Positions 3,979-14,733 of a DNA stretch of 14,733 nt are shown in pieces. The notes below the pieces were generated by a model that saw only the letters and a list, made by a program, of their open reading frames with translations, was not told where the DNA came from and searched no databases. The DNA lies in the IMG/VR virus record IMGVR_UViG_2778261529_000003. One strand, 5' to 3'. A program made the position numbers and the translations under genes. The stretch comes from a virus. Taxonomy: Duplodnaviria > Heunggongvirae > Uroviricota > Caudoviricetes. How positions within the stretch are numbered: the first letter of the stretch is position 1; every line of letters starts with the position of its first letter.

Positions 3979-4176
3979 ATGTCAAATACGCTTATTCGTT
4001 TAACAGAAGTTCAGCGTAGAACTGGATATAGCAAGGCATGGATTTATCGCCTTATGGGGCAAGGTAAATTTCCTGCATCAGTTAAAATTGGCTCGCGAGC
4101 TATTGCTTTCGTTGAGAGTGAAATTGACGAGTGGATTAATCAGCGTATTGCGGAATCACGCGGAACAGCTACCTGA
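3979..4176 (+). CDS. alpA: AlpA/Vis-family phage transcriptional regulator (excisionase-like HTH)
   Basis: 65-aa ORF, ATG 3979 with GAGG 7 nt upstream. Sequence RTGYSKAWIYRLMGQGKFPASVKIGSRAIAFVESEIDEWINQR matches the AlpA/prophage CP4-57 regulatory-protein pattern. Confidence 0.85.
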   Translation: MSNTLIRLTEVQRRTGYSKAWIYRLMGQGKFPASVKIGSRAIAFVESEIDEWINQRIAESRGTAT

Positions 4177-4253: not shown

Positions 4254-5054
4254 ATGAAATTTCCAAAAACGCCCGTACAGGGGCGGGGCTTCGTTCGGCC
4301 TGAAAACCAGAATCTGCAAAATTTCGGCGAAATTATCCCGGTTATTTCCGGCATTATTGGCGGGTGTGAAACCAATATTGTTAGCGCCAGAGCGTTGCAT
4401 AAGGCGTTAGGTGTAGGTCGCGTTTTCCGTTCGTGGATCAAGGGGCGCATTGAAGAATACGGCTTCACGGAAGGCGTGGATTATGAGGTTGTTGAATATT
4501 TGAGCCGACCCGATCCGGTGAGCGCAAAATCTCGCCAGCAAACAGCTCTTGAGTACATCATTACCGTGAACATGGCAAAAGAACTGGCGATGGTCGAACG
4601 CACCGAACAGGGCCGCGCCGTTCGCCAGTACTTCATCAAATGCGAGGAGGAGCTACACAAGGTAGCGCCAGTGCGTTCCGCAGCTTTACGCCGGGAACTG
4701 AAAGCCCGTATCACCGTTGCCAGCTACTTTAAGCCAATGTGTGCCGCGCTGGAGGCGTACCGGGCTGAACTGGGTAAAAACACGCTCCAGCACCATTACA
4801 CCACGGAAGCCAATATGCTGGCGCGTATCGTGCTGGGTGGCATGACTGCAAAACAGTGGGCGCAGGCGAACGGCATCACAGGCGAACCACGCGACCACAT
4901 GAGCACATTGCAGCTTGAGCACCTTTCTTACCTTGAGCAGAGCAATATCACGCTGATTGAGTTAGGCCAGGACTACCACCAGCGGAAAGCTGAATTAATT
5001 CGTCTTTCGCAGCGTTGGTTAGCCCGTCGCATGGAGGAAAACAGCCATGTGTAA
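4254..5054 (+). CDS. phage antirepressor-like protein (AntA-type N-terminal domain)
   Basis: 266-aa ORF, ATG 4254 with AGGAG upstream. N-terminal ISARALHKALGVGRVFRSWIKGRIEEYGFTEGVDYEV resembles the AntA/AntB antirepressor domain. Confidence 0.7.
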   Translation: MKFPKTPVQGRGFVRPENQNLQNFGEIIPVISGIIGGCETNIVSARALHKALGVGRVFRSWIKGRIEEYGFTEGVDYEVVEYLSRPDPVSAKSRQQTALEYIITVNMAKELAMVERTEQGRAVRQYFIKCEEELHKVAPVRSAALRRELKARITVASYFKPMCAALEAYRAELGKNTLQHHYTTEANMLARIVLGGMTAKQWAQANGITGEPRDHMSTLQLEHLSYLEQSNITLIELGQDYHQRKAELIRLSQRWLARRMEENSHV

Positions 5055-5720
5055 CGCTCTGACCGTTACAAAAAGAGAAAGCGCCCCGTTGCCGGAGCGC
5101 CTTTGTGAACAAATCGCTTACTGCGCCATATTGTTTACTGCCTTTCGGGCAGATTATAGCGTTGTGGTCGCACAGAGTGAAGGCGCTGATCACTGTTACT
5201 ACAGTACGCCAGAAATGCAGAATATTTTGCTGCAAAATGCCGTTAGCCACGCTGTCCGGAAAGCAAAAAATTTTGCTGGTGGCGCGACTGATGCGATTTT
5301 GTCAGGTCACCAGGTGCTGATCAATCTGATGTCTGATTTCGTTCTGGATAAAACAAAGGCGACTGCAGAGGGCCACCAGTGGGAAAGCTACACACTTGAA
5401 CACATTGCCAACAATGCCAGATTTGCGGCTGGTGGGCAATGTGATCAGTGTGCTGGCTTGCTGGTGGGCTATTCATGCTCTTTAACATTGCCATGCCGCG
5501 ATGTTTTCCAGGTATGCGATCCCATTTTTGTGCGCCTGTACTCTTTAAGGAATTGCTCAAGGGCAAAAGCACATGGCGCGAATCTTTCTGATTCATGCTC
5601 TATCTTTCTGCGCCGTCTTTTCCGTGCCGGTGATGGTGTATTGGTTGATTCTTTGTTGGTCATTCTGTGTACCTGTAAAGCAATGCGCCGGAGTTCCTCA
5701 CACCACGGCGATGATAGTTA

Positions 5721-5900
5721 TTATTCTGATTCTTTGGCCTTGCGGCGCTGGCGGCGTTTGATCTCGCCTTTTGCGGCAGTAACTAAAAAACCAGCGGTAC
5801 TTTCGCCAGGTTCTTTAAGTTGCTCAATATCATCCATTACTTCATGTGGGATTCTGACAGTTGTCATTTGTGATTTTGCGTTTTTTGCACCAGTTGCCAT
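5721..5900 (-). CDS. small ribbon-helix-helix (Arc/MetJ/CopG-like) DNA-binding protein, candidate island repressor
   Basis: 59-aa ORF from the internal ATG of the 5721..6077 minus ORF, with AGGAG 9 nt upstream. MATGAKNAKSQMTTVRIPHEVMDDIEQLKEPGESTAGFLVTAAKGEIKRRQRRKAKESE has a beta-strand then two helices, the RHH pattern. Transcribed divergently from the replication operon. Confidence 0.6.
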   Translation of the reverse strand: MATGAKNAKSQMTTVRIPHEVMDDIEQLKEPGESTAGFLVTAAKGEIKRRQRRKAKESE

Positions 5901-5966
5901 TTCTGGATCTCCTAAAAATTGGTGTATGTCAGTATACGCAAAAAAAATGATAAAAAAAGGCTTGAA

Positions 5967-6012
5967 GTGTATTTCACCAGTGAGTAAATTAAAAAGCAAA
6001 GGTGAAATACAC
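5967..6012. promoter_or_regulatory. perfect 12-bp inverted repeat GTGTATTTCACC (21-bp spacer) GGTGAAATACAC, candidate operator in the divergent intergenic region
   Basis: Read directly. Located between the RHH gene start (5900) and the first rightward small ORF (6094), flanked by A-tracts. Confidence 0.5.
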
Positions 6013-6093
6013 CTAAAAGAGCAACGCCCCGCAGTGCTCGCAACACATGCAGGGCGTCTAACCACCAACGATAGCAAGAGTATCGAGGTAGCT

Positions 6094-6297
6094 ATGGGAA
6101 ATCATACCACACACCCGCAAGGGCGGGACTCGCACAACCTGAATAAATACATCTGGCGTTTTATCGCCCTGAGCACGGCACAACCGCGCGTAATTCACAT
6201 CGAGGCCATCAGCGAACAGGAAGCACGCCAGCAATCTCCTGATGGCTGTGTGATGGTATTCGCCGCCCGTATTCGTCAGGGGGTAAGCCATGCATAA
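6094..6297 (+). CDS. hypothetical small protein (67 aa)
   Basis: ATG 6094 with GAGG upstream. Ends in SHA-stop with the 8-nt overlap junction CATGCATAA onto the next gene. This is the terminal segment of the long 5047..6297 frame, so the start is uncertain. Confidence 0.35.
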   Translation: MGNHTTHPQGRDSHNLNKYIWRFIALSTAQPRVIHIEAISEQEARQQSPDGCVMVFAARIRQGVSHA

Positions 6298-6655
6298 CCT
6301 GTCAATTTCTGACCTTAACAGCATTCAGTTTGACGAGAAATTTACCGGGCAGTTGCTGGTCAATGTGGAGAACGGGCGCATAGTGCGTAATTACCACCTG
6401 CCGGATGGTGCAATTGCCGGAAGCGTTGAAGCATTGCTGGAACTGGCGGAACGTGCGCGACTGATTAAGCCGTCAACGAGCCATCACGATGATGATCTGC
6501 ATTTTACCGGGCGTATGGTGAGTCACTACGAAAACGGCGTTGAAGTATCCCGCGAACGGCTGCGTGATGATTGCTGTTTCGGCACACTGCCGGAATTTAT
6601 CGAGTTGCTGACCAGTTGCGGTTATCAGGTCATTCAGGGGGGTGAACATGCGTGA
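6290..6655 (+). CDS. hypothetical protein (121 aa), paralogous N-terminus to 6874..7074
   Basis: ATG 6290. N-terminus MHN...FTGQLLV resembles MHN...FTGRVLV of the 6874 gene. Ends EHA-stop overlapping the next ATG (CATGCGTGA). Confidence 0.6.
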   Translation: MHNLSISDLNSIQFDEKFTGQLLVNVENGRIVRNYHLPDGAIAGSVEALLELAERARLIKPSTSHHDDDLHFTGRMVSHYENGVEVSRERLRDDCCFGTLPEFIELLTSCGYQVIQGGEHA

Positions 6656-7369: not shown

Positions 7370-9171
7370 AAAACGCACCGAATTTAAAATATCAGCCGAA
7401 GGATAAATTCACCGAGGTAATCATTTTGGCCGGGACGGATGCTTACGCCCATGCTCAACACTGGATTGAAAGCGAAGGACGAAAACACGGCGATAACGTA
7501 CCACCTGTTTACCTGGGGCCGAAGCAACTGGCAGACCTGGCGAATATCCGCATTATTGACGAGAAACGCCGCTTTGCGCGTGTCTATCTTGCGGGGGAGA
7601 TCGAGCCAATCCAGATCAATGCTATCGCTGAAAAACTGGCGCTGGCTGGCGTACAGGACGCGAAATTATACAAAGGTATCACCGATCGGGAGCCGGAAAA
7701 CTGGCGCGACTACCTGCAACGGATCCGCGAACAGGCAGAGAGTGGGGAAGTTTCGGCGATGAAATTAGCCACAAAAAATATTGACCTACCCAGGCCAGCA
7801 CTAAATCAGATGGGAGCCAGCCAGAGAGGGGAAGTGTTACTTGAATATTATGGAAGAGCACTGGCTATAAATGATGATTCTGATGTAGTTCACCATTACA
7901 ACGGAATTGTCTGGGTGCCTGTATCTGATAAGGAACTCCAGCGGTCTATGGCGAAGATTTTTATTGATGCTGGAATCAGTTATTCGCAAAACGCCATTAA
8001 ATTTGCCGTAGACACAATGAAATTGAGCCTGCCTGTTATGGGCGGGGCTGACAGGAATCTTATTGGATTCAGTAACGGGGTATTTGATACCAGGACAGGA
8101 AATTTTCGGGAGCACAACAAAAATGACTGGTTGTTAAATGCCAGTGAATTACCGTTCAGCCCACCAGCAGAGGGGGAAACGCTGGCAACACATGCGCCGA
8201 ATTTCTGGAAGTGGTTGCGTCGTTCGGTGGCAGATAATGATCGTAAAGCTGATCGCGTACTGGCGGCATTATTCATGGTACTGGCGAACCGGTACGACTG
8301 GCAGTTATTCCTTGAGGTAACTGGCCCAGGCGGAAGCGGTAAAAGTGTGATGGCGGAGATTTGTACCATGCTGGCTGGTAAGGCCAACACAGTATCGGCA
8401 AGCATGAAGGCGCTGGAAGACGCAAGGGAACGCGCGTTAGTCGTTGGCTTTTCGCTGATTATCATGCCGGATATGGCCCGCTACGCTGGAGATGGTGCAG
8501 GAATTAAGGCAATTACTGGCGGCGACAAGGTGGCAATCGACCCGAAACATAAAGCCCCCTACTCCACACGTATTCCGGCGGTAGTGCTGGCAGTAAACAA
8601 TAACGCCATGTCATTCAGTGATCGCAGTGGAGGGATCTCGCGTCGTAGGGTGATATTTAATTTCTCTGAGGTCGTACCGGAGAACGAACGCGATCCCATG
8701 CTGGTGGAAAAAATAGAAGGCGAACTGGCGGTAGTGATTCGCCACCTGCTTACTCGTTTTTCTGACCAGGATGAAGCCAGACGTCTGTTATATGAGCAGC
8801 AGAAATCAGAAGAGGCACTGGTGATAAAACGCGAGGGTGATTCACTGGTGGACTTTTGCGGCTATCTGATGTCGTTGGTTAAATGTGAAGGAATGATGGT
8901 GGGCAATGCGGAAATAGTGCCATTTAGCCCGAGGCGGTACCTGTATCATGCTTATTTAGCCTATATGTCAGCGCATGGCCTGGGAAAACCAGTATCACTG
9001 ACACGCTTTGGTACAGATATGCCAGGAGCTATGGCGGAATACGGAAAGGAGTATAAGCGGGCTAAATGCACTAAAGGCCAGGATAAAGGGCGAGTGATAA
9101 CAAATGTTCTGTTAGATGATGATGCTGATGGTTGGTTGCCAGCAGCAACAGGGATTAACGACAGAACATAA
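7366..9171 (+). CDS. replication initiator: D5_N domain plus SF3 helicase (P4 alpha C-terminal-like primase/helicase family)
   Basis: 601-aa ORF, GTG start with GGAGG upstream. Walker A GPGGSGKS; D5_N-like segment NGVFDTRTGNFREHNKNDW. Followed immediately by an iteron array. Confidence 0.88.
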   Translation: MKNAPNLKYQPKDKFTEVIILAGTDAYAHAQHWIESEGRKHGDNVPPVYLGPKQLADLANIRIIDEKRRFARVYLAGEIEPIQINAIAEKLALAGVQDAKLYKGITDREPENWRDYLQRIREQAESGEVSAMKLATKNIDLPRPALNQMGASQRGEVLLEYYGRALAINDDSDVVHHYNGIVWVPVSDKELQRSMAKIFIDAGISYSQNAIKFAVDTMKLSLPVMGGADRNLIGFSNGVFDTRTGNFREHNKNDWLLNASELPFSPPAEGETLATHAPNFWKWLRRSVADNDRKADRVLAALFMVLANRYDWQLFLEVTGPGGSGKSVMAEICTMLAGKANTVSASMKALEDARERALVVGFSLIIMPDMARYAGDGAGIKAITGGDKVAIDPKHKAPYSTRIPAVVLAVNNNAMSFSDRSGGISRRRVIFNFSEVVPENERDPMLVEKIEGELAVVIRHLLTRFSDQDEARRLLYEQQKSEEALVIKREGDSLVDFCGYLMSLVKCEGMMVGNAEIVPFSPRRYLYHAYLAYMSAHGLGKPVSLTRFGTDMPGAMAEYGKEYKRAKCTKGQDKGRVITNVLLDDDADGWLPAATGINDRT

Positions 9172-13125: not shown

Positions 13126-13953
13126 ATGATAAACTTAGATATGGATGTTGTGGTTGGACATGGGCAGAACGATTTTGAAGAATTAGAAATGAATTCCGGC
13201 ATAAAGGTTTTTGCTGGAGCTTCTGACATCACCCAAATTACAACAAGCACTATTTTAGATGATTCAGTCCCCAAAAAATCAACCTCTATACATGGGCTTA
13301 GGAATATGTTCAAACATACATTTGATGGATCGTTTGGACAAAATTTTGAACTTAGAATTGATGATCCTGAAAAGATAAAAAGATTTAATGAAATTGGCAG
13401 GGGTGTTTTTTTTGATGTTATGTCATATTACATCTCTAAAGGAATGGGAATAGCTCACCATCTTAAGAGCCAGAAAGCAATCGACTTAGTAGAGCGTCTT
13501 AAACCGCTTGAAAAACAACTTTTGATAAGAATTCAGGAACCTATACAGAATTTACATAAAACAGTTGAGAAACAAAAATATAATGTACTTCTGAGAAGAA
13601 GAACACCAACTAAAAAATTAGTTGTTGCTAAAATGGATACGCAGACGCTCTTCAATATCAATGTAGAGCATGAATCTGCTCAACCAGTAGAAGAAAATGT
13701 TATTATAACTAGGTTTAATATGTTAACAGGAACTGGTCGATTGTTATTAGATAGACAGTCAGATTCAATTGCCTTTAGACACCATCTTAATTGGGAACAT
13801 GTATTGCAGTCTCAGAAAAATAAGTTTTCAAGGAATCTTGATAGGAATAACAGAGGTGGTAAAGACGCTTTTATACCTATAACCATTTCTGCTTATGAGT
13901 TGCGCGATCATATTGGAGAGCTAAAGGCTTATATAATTAGAGAAATATTGTAA
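13126..13953 (+). CDS. hypothetical soluble protein (275 aa), first gene of an AT-rich cargo operon
   Basis: Long ORF in strongly AT-rich DNA, K/N/I-rich codon usage unlike the island core. Stop TAA 13951-13953 directly abuts the next ATG. No family recognised. Confidence 0.65.
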   Translation: MINLDMDVVVGHGQNDFEELEMNSGIKVFAGASDITQITTSTILDDSVPKKSTSIHGLRNMFKHTFDGSFGQNFELRIDDPEKIKRFNEIGRGVFFDVMSYYISKGMGIAHHLKSQKAIDLVERLKPLEKQLLIRIQEPIQNLHKTVEKQKYNVLLRRRTPTKKLVVAKMDTQTLFNINVEHESAQPVEENVIITRFNMLTGTGRLLLDRQSDSIAFRHHLNWEHVLQSQKNKFSRNLDRNNRGGKDAFIPITISAYELRDHIGELKAYIIREIL

Positions 13954-14733
13954 ATGAAGATGCCCTCAATCAAAGTTATTTCACTTATATTAATAGCTAT
14001 TGTATGGTATTTTTACTTTTCTCATTTCAATCATTGGGATAGCCCGTTAGATATCTTTAATGCTAGCAAATGGATGGGTTTTTCCAATGATAAAGGTGAT
14101 TGGGGCACTTTCGGGGATTTTGTAGGAGGTGTGCTTAATCCTATCTTGACCTTCATTACAATTGTTATGCTCATTAATTCCTTGAAACTTCAACGAGAAG
14201 CAAACGAGCAACTAATTAAAGACGAAAGAAGACAAGAGAAAGACGTTCTTCTAAAACGGTTTGAAGACGGTTTTTATAACCTTATCTCTTCAGAAAGAGA
14301 GGAGTTTAGTTGTTTTACTATTAACATTAACGGAAAAGAATACCGCTCATCTGCTGCTGTTAGTGAATTGGAAGAGGCAATATGGGCTTTTATTGAGAAA
14401 CAAATAGATGAAAAAGGAGCTTGCGAAATTGAGGATGTTAAAAATTACATAAATAAAATTGATGAGGATTCATCTATGGCAATATTTTCCATGGTGCGAT
14501 GTGTATATGTTGTTTTTAAGGTTGTTAAGGATAAATGCCCTGAAGAACATCAAGATTACTACTTAGATATTTTTATGAATATGTTACCAGTTAAACTGGT
14601 AAATTTAGTTGCTATTGTGTCTGTGTATATGGACTGGAAAAACGTAAAATATATTATTGATGGTGGAAAAGGATTTTCGGATAATGAAGCAGTTAAAGAA
14701 TATATTAATACTTGGAAGGAGTTTCATGAATAA
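13954..14733 (+). CDS. hypothetical membrane protein (259 aa) with two N-terminal transmembrane helices, candidate effector
   Basis: Hydrophobic segments VISLILIAIVWYFYFSHF and FGDFVGGVLNPILTFITIVMLINSL, then a charged, probably helical cytoplasmic domain. Zero-nt intergenic spacing from the upstream gene. Confidence 0.7.
   Translation: MKMPSIKVISLILIAIVWYFYFSHFNHWDSPLDIFNASKWMGFSNDKGDWGTFGDFVGGVLNPILTFITIVMLINSLKLQREANEQLIKDERRQEKDVLLKRFEDGFYNLISSEREEFSCFTININGKEYRSSAAVSELEEAIWAFIEKQIDEKGACEIEDVKNYINKIDEDSSMAIFSMVRCVYVVFKVVKDKCPEEHQDYYLDIFMNMLPVKLVNLVAIVSVYMDWKNVKYIIDGGKGFSDNEAVKEYINTWKEFHE

Follow-up and report, generated by a model that had tools for sequence, protein, structure and literature searches.

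The divergent promoter region that separates a small leftward gene from the rightward replication operon of this island carries three copies of an 11-bp site, GTG-N5-CAC, and across related loci the core of that site changes in step with the beta-strand of the 59-residue protein encoded by the leftward gene. Our best reading of this arrangement, and one that we regard as probable, is that the protein is a cognate, immunity-type ribbon-helix-helix (RHH) repressor with autoregulation at the GTG-N5-CAC sites. On comparative grounds it is nearly as probable that the protein binds the sites and represses the rightward operon; that it serves as the maintenance repressor of the island is a more tentative proposal, to which we would give somewhat less than an even chance. 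In agreement with what the first-pass annotation had stated, published accounts describe Gram-negative phage-inducible chromosomal islands (PICIs) with AlpA as the activator and leave the matter of a repressor open (PMC6092414). Specifically, AlpA is necessary and, when over-expressed, sufficient for the cycle of EcCICFT073, with both excision and replication induced, mutation of alpA abolishes induction of that island, and a repressor for this prototype island is termed "unclear" (PMC6092414); the gene described here is not among the subjects of the published EcCICFT073 work. Additionally, a comparative study of satellites places immunity RNAs in a Bro zone, for which it describes no protein repressor (PMC10111431), while a 2026 survey reports a YlcI/YnfO gene, of the family to which the present gene belongs, in Enterobacter capsid-forming PICIs as an annotation label only. 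Among the papers searched, none is a functional study of the YlcI/YnfO family, the name being used only as an annotation label.

Within the window (the whole stretch of 14,733 nucleotides analysed here), proA and tRNA-Thr(CGT) (1369-1444) lead into an integrated island, the genes of which most relevant to the argument are as follows.

1611-2825: tyrosine integrase gene (int)
3979-4176: alpA
4254-5054: AntA-type gene (antA)
5721-5900, minus strand: RHH gene of the YlcI/YnfO family, 59 residues plus stop
5909-5912, minus strand: Shine-Dalgarno sequence GGAG of the RHH gene, 8 nt before the ATG, read from the sequence; the upstream region is kept in related loci
6094-6297, plus strand: Icd-like gene, the first of the putatively regulated operon
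Remainder of that operon, plus strand: four small overlapping ORFs, a DUF4222 gene and a D5/P4-type primase-helicase gene ending at 9171

From the Icd-like gene to the primase-helicase gene the rightward operon is tightly packed, and downstream of the primase lie genes for a ProQ/FinO protein, a PerC protein, a DUF2213/protease-like protein and a small-terminase-like HTH protein, followed by AT-rich cargo. Judged from the sequence, this is the gene order of a Gram-negative PICI, and the order in EcCICFT073, the prototype of these islands, equals it; the gene content likewise comprises the features by which such islands are recognised (int with alpA, a primase, packaging-redirection and a tRNA site) and includes neither lysis nor tail genes.

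Several other elements of the window may be recorded here. An int-alpA RNA (Rfam RF02996) is found at 2870-2937, between the integrase gene and the next ORF, with a score of 45.5 bits that exceeds the gathering score. The interval 5055-5468 holds no assigned feature and is likewise without annotation in the closest related genome (NZ_LR882990.1, L080). A plus-strand open frame of 416 codons (5047-6297) extends from the end of antA, antisense across the RHH gene and the operators, and continues in frame with the Icd-like gene; it almost certainly does not represent a gene. At the island's far end (13126-14733) are two AT-rich cargo ORFs, possible accessory or defence genes, one of which (275 aa) matches phrog_13337, a group that carries no function label, while the second (at least 259 aa) is without a family match.

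The 59-aa ORF that the first-pass annotation had singled out is real: it opens with an ATG, is preceded by GGAG at the proper distance, runs for 59 codons, and has homologues of 59-64 aa in Escherichia, Salmonella, Yersinia, Pectobacterium, Dickeya, Serratia, Xenorhabdus, Edwardsiella and other genera. Across an alignment of 18 sequences, M1, T3, K6, N7, K9, S10, R16, E26, E33, S34, F38 and the stretch E46-R52 (EIKRRQR) are invariant. Residues 9-50 match the NCBIfam model NF041551 (YlcI_YnfO_N) with 64 bits against a cut-off of 30 (E 9e-18), RefSeq gives the YlcI/YnfO family name to the E. coli homologues, that of EcCICFT073 included, and PHROGs places the protein in phrog_949, which carries no function label. 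A Pfam scan returned nothing above noise, a profile search of PDB sequences returned no match, Foldseek with the predicted model found no significant match, and tblastn against 50,697 phage records produced no match for the satellite subfamily. The AlphaFold model (pLDDT 87.7) is extended at 11-18 and helical at 19-28 and 35-58, with residues 11-17 (QMTTVRI) as the predicted beta-strand and the invariant GEIKRRQR within the region of helix 2; the strand-helix-helix fold of about 45 residues that characterises the RHH superfamily is therefore present in the model. A G-x-S/T/N turn that opens helix 2 is a signature of the RHH family, and in the present protein helix 2 is preceded by a G32-E33-S34 turn in which E33 and S34 are invariant among the 18 sequences and G32 is mostly conserved. 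On the strength of the model and this turn, we assign the protein with moderate confidence to the RHH (MetJ/Arc) type, its membership being confined to the YlcI/YnfO family and, by fold, to the RHH superfamily.

The perfect 12-bp inverted repeat described in the first-pass annotation is present as claimed, with GTGTATTTCACC at 5967-5978 and GGTGAAATACAC at 6001-6012, and the longest inverted repeat in 1000 dinucleotide-preserving shuffles of the 193-bp intergenic region was 10 bp. Its arms are two of three copies of the 11-bp site GTG-N5-CAC in this divergent promoter region, the third of which (GTGTATGTCAG, 5922-5932) matches at 10 of 11 positions, and the exact 11-mer is absent elsewhere in the window. 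The candidate sites lie among predicted promoter elements in the following order.

5922-5932, minus strand: candidate operator site C, CTGACATACAC in the RHH sense, the proposed autorepression site
5931-5936, minus strand: predicted -10 (TATACT) of the RHH promoter
5962-5967, plus strand: predicted -35 (TTGAAG) of P_icd, the promoter of the rightward icd-like/primase operon
5967-5977, minus strand: candidate operator site B, GTGAAATACAC in the RHH sense, left arm of the inverted repeat
5985-5990, plus strand: predicted -10 (TAAATT) of P_icd, 17 nt after the -35, proposed from sequence
6002-6012, plus strand: candidate operator site A, GTGAAATACAC, right arm of the inverted repeat, at about +5 to +15 of P_icd

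Comparison extended to 79 loci with relatives, one genome per species, in which the 230 nt upstream of each start codon were aligned. Nearly all of these loci, which belong to the Enterobacterales, carry three GTG-N5-CAC copies at about 100-113, 75-77 and 30-32 nt before the ATG, so that the anatomy seen in the window is conserved in position. The N5 core varies between loci and falls into at least 16 types, among them AAATA in this window, TGGCC in EcCICFT073, and TCAGC, AATCG, AACAC, TCTTA, GCACC, GATTC and AATGC in others. Sites A and B form direct repeats at 33 of 61 loci and inverted repeats at the remaining 28, even inside one specificity class, and their start-to-start offset ranges from about 21 to 40 bp. 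The earlier proposal of an inverted-repeat operator thus survives insofar as the arms appear to be cognate sites on the promoter of the replication operon; the inverted symmetry itself is incidental, and the sites number three. The same comparison bears on the suggestion that the repeat is an RNA stem-loop or terminator in the leader, or a DNA cruciform, as opposed to a protein site. Such a structure would have a perfect 12-bp stem with a 22-nt loop, and a terminator scan marks minus-strand positions 6014-6000 as a small hairpin with T-run, but the orientation of A relative to B is not conserved, and this excludes a hairpin. Moreover, no possible stem could include the third copy, the left arm falls between the predicted -35 and -10 of P_icd, so that by the predicted starts neither promoter transcribes both arms, and the genuine RNA hairpins of the leader are located farther downstream, with covariation of their own. 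We attach next to no probability to a structural explanation of the repeat.

Placement of the three sites relative to the two promoters is similarly consistent among loci. The predicted start of P_icd is at about 5997, and TTGAC or TTGAA stands beside site B on the other strand in 44 of 46 anchored loci; as this motif is the predicted rightward -35, site B fills the spacer between the -35 and -10 of P_icd. A standard consensus rule finds P_icd at the matching place in 42 of the 79 loci, a promoter tool independently finds it in EcCICFT073 (TTGACG-18-TATAGT), and a TAnnnT pattern, judged by eye, occupies the -10 position in related loci. Site A overlaps or follows the -10 of P_icd across related loci and in the window lies just past the predicted start. 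The promoter of the RHH gene is less canonical: in 52 of 58 loci TATACT precedes the ATG by 36 nt, a good -35 is missing, and the full consensus rule is satisfied in only 10 of 79. Site C abuts this TATACT hexamer, overlapping the last 2 nt of the -10 together with the predicted start, and site B is situated approximately 43-53 bp upstream of the predicted RHH start.

The strongest evidence for a relationship between protein and sites comes from co-variation. Within a locus, sites B and C differ at 0.67 of 9 positions, as against 3.5 between loci (permutation, 21 classes, p<1e-5), and any given beta-strand sequence (residues 10-18) goes with a single operator core, the pairing of SQQLNARFP with GTGAATCGCAC, for example, recurring in Xenorhabdus, Morganella, Dickeya, Pectobacterium and Citrobacter. 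Taken column by column, residues 14 and 12 are the best predictors of the operator: residue 14 is identical in 100% of same-operator pairs but in 7% of different-operator pairs, and residue 12 in 89% and 12%, respectively, while S10 and R16 are invariant between or beside them. As far as sequence can tell, residues 12, 14 and 16 follow the alternate spacing with which RHH strands read DNA, and this gives indirect support to a dimer whose two-stranded antiparallel sheet enters the major groove. The same analysis gives a negative result for the neighbouring genes. The median identity of Icd is 0.41 among same-operator pairs and 0.39 among different-operator pairs, and Icd proteins that are 95% identical occur with different operators; identity of the matched AlpA segment can reach 100% where the operators differ and can be 23% where they agree; and primase and integrase, like AlpA, do not track the operator core. 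In an out-of-sample set of 62 non-redundant IMG/VR loci, the beta-strand gave a predicted operator that was present three times in 54 and twice in the other 8, non-cognate operators being essentially absent; the positions of the three sites are also kept in about 60 contigs of viral databases. Because the sites track RHH residues 12 and 14 while the neighbouring genes, as is directly observed, do not, the 59-aa protein and the sites, we conclude, form a cognate cassette that recombines as a unit, binding itself and its dimer stoichiometry being inferred.

These data also bear on the question of whether the three repeats might be iterons of an origin, or sites of AlpA, the Icd-like protein or the primase, with the RHH protein unrelated to them. 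The repeats do flank an AT-rich stretch (5937-5961) that is superficially origin-like, and PHROG 6196, which the Icd-like protein matches, is labelled 'transcriptional repressor'. Against such assignments, the core varies independently of primase, AlpA, integrase and Icd, near-identical copies of which occur with different sites and divergent copies with the same sites, whereas RHH residues 12 and 14 are tracked almost perfectly. The island of NZ_LR882990.1, which is 93.9% identical in this region and presumably has the same sites, carries a RepA helicase in place of the primase. Published PICI origins are located downstream of pri-rep (PMC6092414). The recombinant pairs lead us to reject iteron, AlpA, Icd or primase as the cognate factor, and we accord this group of explanations very little likelihood.

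The module is not rare. DNA matching 5050-6300 is present in 1799 of 5426 complete E. coli genomes, and among the matches listed a 'YlcI/YnfO family protein' is annotated adjoining an 'Icd-like protein'. EcCICFT073 itself has the module, comprising the RHH gene C_RS30120, with the beta-strand SQALKARVP, the Icd-like gene C_RS30125, and GTGTGGCCCAC in two copies with a degenerate third copy after TATACT. The close relative in NZ_LR882990.1 (954668-968400), at tRNA-Gly, has extra cargo and a RepA-family helicase that replaces the D5-type primase, yet is 93.9% identical to the window across the RHH/operator region, an observation that shows the modularity of these islands. At two Pectobacterium loci (L038, 9874-10044; L039, 9565-9735) a second RHH homologue and a second icd-like match are present approximately 4.6-4.9 kb from the first, suggesting tandem islands. 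Genomes with several islands were also considered, the co-resident pairs coming from Xenorhabdus innexi (L013, L027, L032 and L065), X. mauleonii (L015, L033, L046 and L060) and 13 other genomes. The RHH/operator class differs in 26 of 27 such pairs, where chance predicts about 24 (2.7 identical pairs expected, p=0.23); as this is not significantly above chance, it is no evidence that co-resident islands avoid a shared specificity.

RHH proteins being considered, the refuting possibility raised in the first-pass annotation, namely that the gene encodes the antitoxin of a toxin-antitoxin pair, must be weighed. The potential partners would be a small neighbouring ORF or, loosely, the divergent Icd-like inhibitor; the former, and a hairpin beyond it, are placed as follows.

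5469-5663, minus strand: small basic ORF (orf64), 64 aa, possibly co-transcribed with the RHH gene, found only in E. coli islands
5078-5103, minus strand: intrinsic-terminator-like hairpin and T-run that would end the leftward RHH transcript, conserved in EcCICFT073 (L083, 10016-10043)

The product of orf64, which starts 57 nt downstream of the RHH gene, is very basic (RKRRRRK) and matches phrog_21027, a group without a function label. Its first approximately 43 residues are shared with C_RS30800 of EcCICFT073, beyond which the two have diverged, and other genera are without a match; many E. coli megablast matches begin at about 5535, inside orf64, which suggests a recombination boundary. Across the 79 loci no toxin gene, and indeed no downstream ORF, is conserved next to the RHH gene, and among them orf64 matches only the window. 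Furthermore, the 59-aa protein is without a C-terminal extension of the toxin-neutralising kind, the promoter that bears two of the three operators is that of a replication operon of about 3 kb and not of a bicistronic antitoxin-toxin pair, and the Icd sequence does not co-vary with RHH. A type II antitoxin is accordingly a most improbable identity for this protein.

Downstream of site A, the leader of the icd-like operon presents a second conserved architecture.

6024-6057, plus strand: leader hairpin 1, a GC-rich stem with compensatory changes across 52 loci
6057-6065, plus strand: nearly invariant unpaired TCTAACCAC between the leader hairpins
6069-6085, plus strand: leader hairpin 2, CGATA-7 nt-TATCG, just before the ribosome-binding site

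Compensatory base changes affect 12 of 14 pairs in the two hairpins across these loci, and the location of such covarying structures downstream of site A fits rightward transcription that starts upstream of them. Rfam has no family for the leader (6024-6093), for which the best result is an 18-bit resemblance to the R1162 antisense RNA; this and other weak Rfam matches (ToxI) are far under threshold. Nor was a C4, isrK or CI-type immunity RNA found by Rfam, whether over the whole window at the gathering score or over 5000-6400 at E<=10. The conserved, structured leader may represent an RNA-level control point, and could be the target of an antisense RNA or of the ProQ/FinO protein of the island.

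In the mechanism that we propose, protein at sites B and A would occlude the core and first transcribed bases of P_icd; with the sites so placed, bound protein should block RNA polymerase, and it is from this geometry that repression, as opposed to activation, is deduced. Blocking P_icd would keep the satellite replication operon and the Icd-like cell-division inhibitor silent, while protein at site C would occlude the RHH gene's own promoter and establish negative autoregulation. Specificity would derive mainly from beta-strand residues 12 and 14, the outer, invariant GTG and CAC perhaps being read by R16 and possibly by an N-terminal arm of K6, N7, K9 and S10; changing residues 12 and 14 from M and T to K and E is predicted to move specificity from GTGAAATACAC to GTGTCAGCCAC. 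Cassettes of protein and sites exist in many mutually distinct specificities, much as phage immunity types do.

A different account of the same binding is that the protein occupies the three sites as a transient or fine-tuning regulator, the silence of the uninduced island resulting mainly from the absence of AlpA. The protein might then, in the manner of Arc at P22 ant, limit the toxic Icd-like product and, once induction has occurred, adjust the amount of replication proteins; activation of its own weak promoter through site B would also be conceivable. The requirement for AlpA in EcCICFT073, and its sufficiency when over-expressed although that island has the module, favour this account, as does, by inference, the RHH promoter, with its conserved -10, no -35, and site B at a distance typical of an activator; the same two features make positive autoregulation at low occupancy conceivable, if speculative. 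Sites A and B on the core of P_icd, however, have the geometry of a repressor, and a divergent autoregulated gene with operator-specificity types follows the pattern of immunity repressors. We consider the fine-tuning account unlikely and prefer that of a cognate repressor.

If the protein is such a repressor, its relief would most likely take place through events downstream of AlpA. Firstly, read-through from alpA-antA might run antisense across the RHH gene: terminator prediction gives none on the plus strand from alpA-antA to the RHH gene, whereas the leftward one on the minus strand (5078-5103) is strong, and AlpA-driven read-through could therefore cross the RHH gene into the operon. Secondly, an anti-repressor might be supplied by the island or by the helper phage. 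AntA cannot be a general anti-repressor, and was rejected as such, since an AntA-like gene is detected by tblastn in only 15 of the 79 loci, and in EcCICFT073 the interval from alpA to the RHH gene carries no Bro/AntA annotation. Given that over-expressed AlpA alone induces EcCICFT073 in the presence of the module, and that alpA mutation abolishes its induction, the RHH protein looks like a lock below or beside AlpA and not a sensor of the helper phage. The fullest version of the proposal is that YlcI/YnfO-type RHH proteins are the missing immunity repressors of Gram-negative PICIs and related satellites, EcCICFT073 included, with at least 16-20 heteroimmune specificities set by two beta-strand residues and with helper induction through an AlpA-dependent override, by antisense read-through or an anti-repressor; we offer it as a possibility that falls a little short of even.

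The kind of regulator described here is ordinary; what is new is a precise candidate off-switch for Gram-negative PICIs and a set of specificity types. The AlpA activator is the only regulator described for these islands, and the 59-aa protein is a concrete candidate repressor that is present in EcCICFT073. With predicted operators and promoters mapped to the base and two specificity residues predicted, a long-standing question becomes directly testable. Should the maintenance-repressor reading be true, specificity types would govern satellite coexistence or superinfection in one cell, and their number would bring immunity into the interplay among satellites and between satellites and helpers. 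Protein-operator pairs that are small and re-targetable could additionally serve engineering as orthogonal repressors. If the protein merely fine-tunes, the finding is one of an ordinary autoregulated RHH regulator.

Among known systems, the nearest working analogues are the omega repressor, Arc and Mnt of P22, and lambda CI with OR, and, in role, Stl of the SaPIs. The omega repressor of pSM19035 (PDB 1irq, 2bnw) is likewise an RHH protein, but it binds contiguous 7-bp heptads cooperatively, whereas the sites here are separate, 11 bp long and divided by a variable spacer; the two proteins share 17% sequence identity, and omega acts in plasmid copy number and partition, as opposed to a phage satellite. 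Arc and Mnt read DNA through alternate residues of the beta-strand. These proteins of the P22 immI region resemble the 59-aa protein in being RHH proteins of a mobile-element immunity region with divergent promoters and an Ant-type anti-repressor gene nearby, although no sequence similarity between them and the 59-aa protein is detectable. The P22 proteins control ant, while here the exact operator occurs only within 5922-6012, with none at antA, and the operon in question is that of the Icd-like and replication genes.

The likeness to the repressor-operator logic of Gram-positive PICIs that the first-pass annotation had drawn holds in part: the RHH gene is divergent from the icd-primase operon and the candidate operators lie on the promoter of that operon, but int is on the opposite strand. 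Stl/Rpr of the SaPIs, like the RHH gene product, is satellite-encoded, divergent from the replication operon and too small or too different for SOS cleavage, and the proposed role, keeping the island silent, is shared (PMC6092414). Stl-type repressors are, however, larger helix-turn-helix proteins encoded in the same orientation as int, whereas int and alpA here are on the strand opposite the RHH gene, and there is no homology between the two proteins. A helper-phage protein relieves Stl by binding to it directly, while in Gram-negative PICIs the helper signal enters through transcription of alpA.

The three related sites over two divergent promoters, and the autoregulation proposed, recall lambda CI and OR, and as with lambdoid immunity there are repressor-operator cassettes of many specificities that recombine independently of their flanks. 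Lambda CI differs in its HTH fold, its cleavage domain and the fixed spacing of its sites, and no Cro-like partner was identified here. Nearer by name are YlcI (DLP12) and YnfO (Qin) of E. coli K-12, which match the same NCBIfam model as the 59-aa protein. YlcI has the same layout of beta-strand, helix, G-x-x-x-S turn and helix, but is approximately 20% identical to the 59-aa protein over 25 residues only, and ylcI (L081, 6252-6835) is divergent from the small-terminase gene nohD in a lambdoid prophage, with a 388-bp region between the two in which, by eye, no three-site arrangement was seen upstream of ylcI. Given this distant relation and the different context beside nohD, K-12 YlcI gives no functional lead, though a role near packaging genes is conceivable for the phage branch of the YlcI/YnfO family. 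Lastly, the position of the module recalls the P4 CI RNA and the P1 c4 RNA, in which an immunity determinant is likewise located just upstream of an icd-type gene heading an early or replication operon. Some Gram-negative PICIs have C4/isrK-type RNAs in the zone upstream of icd (PMC10111431); in the island described here, a protein and its DNA operators appear to take the place of the immunity RNA.
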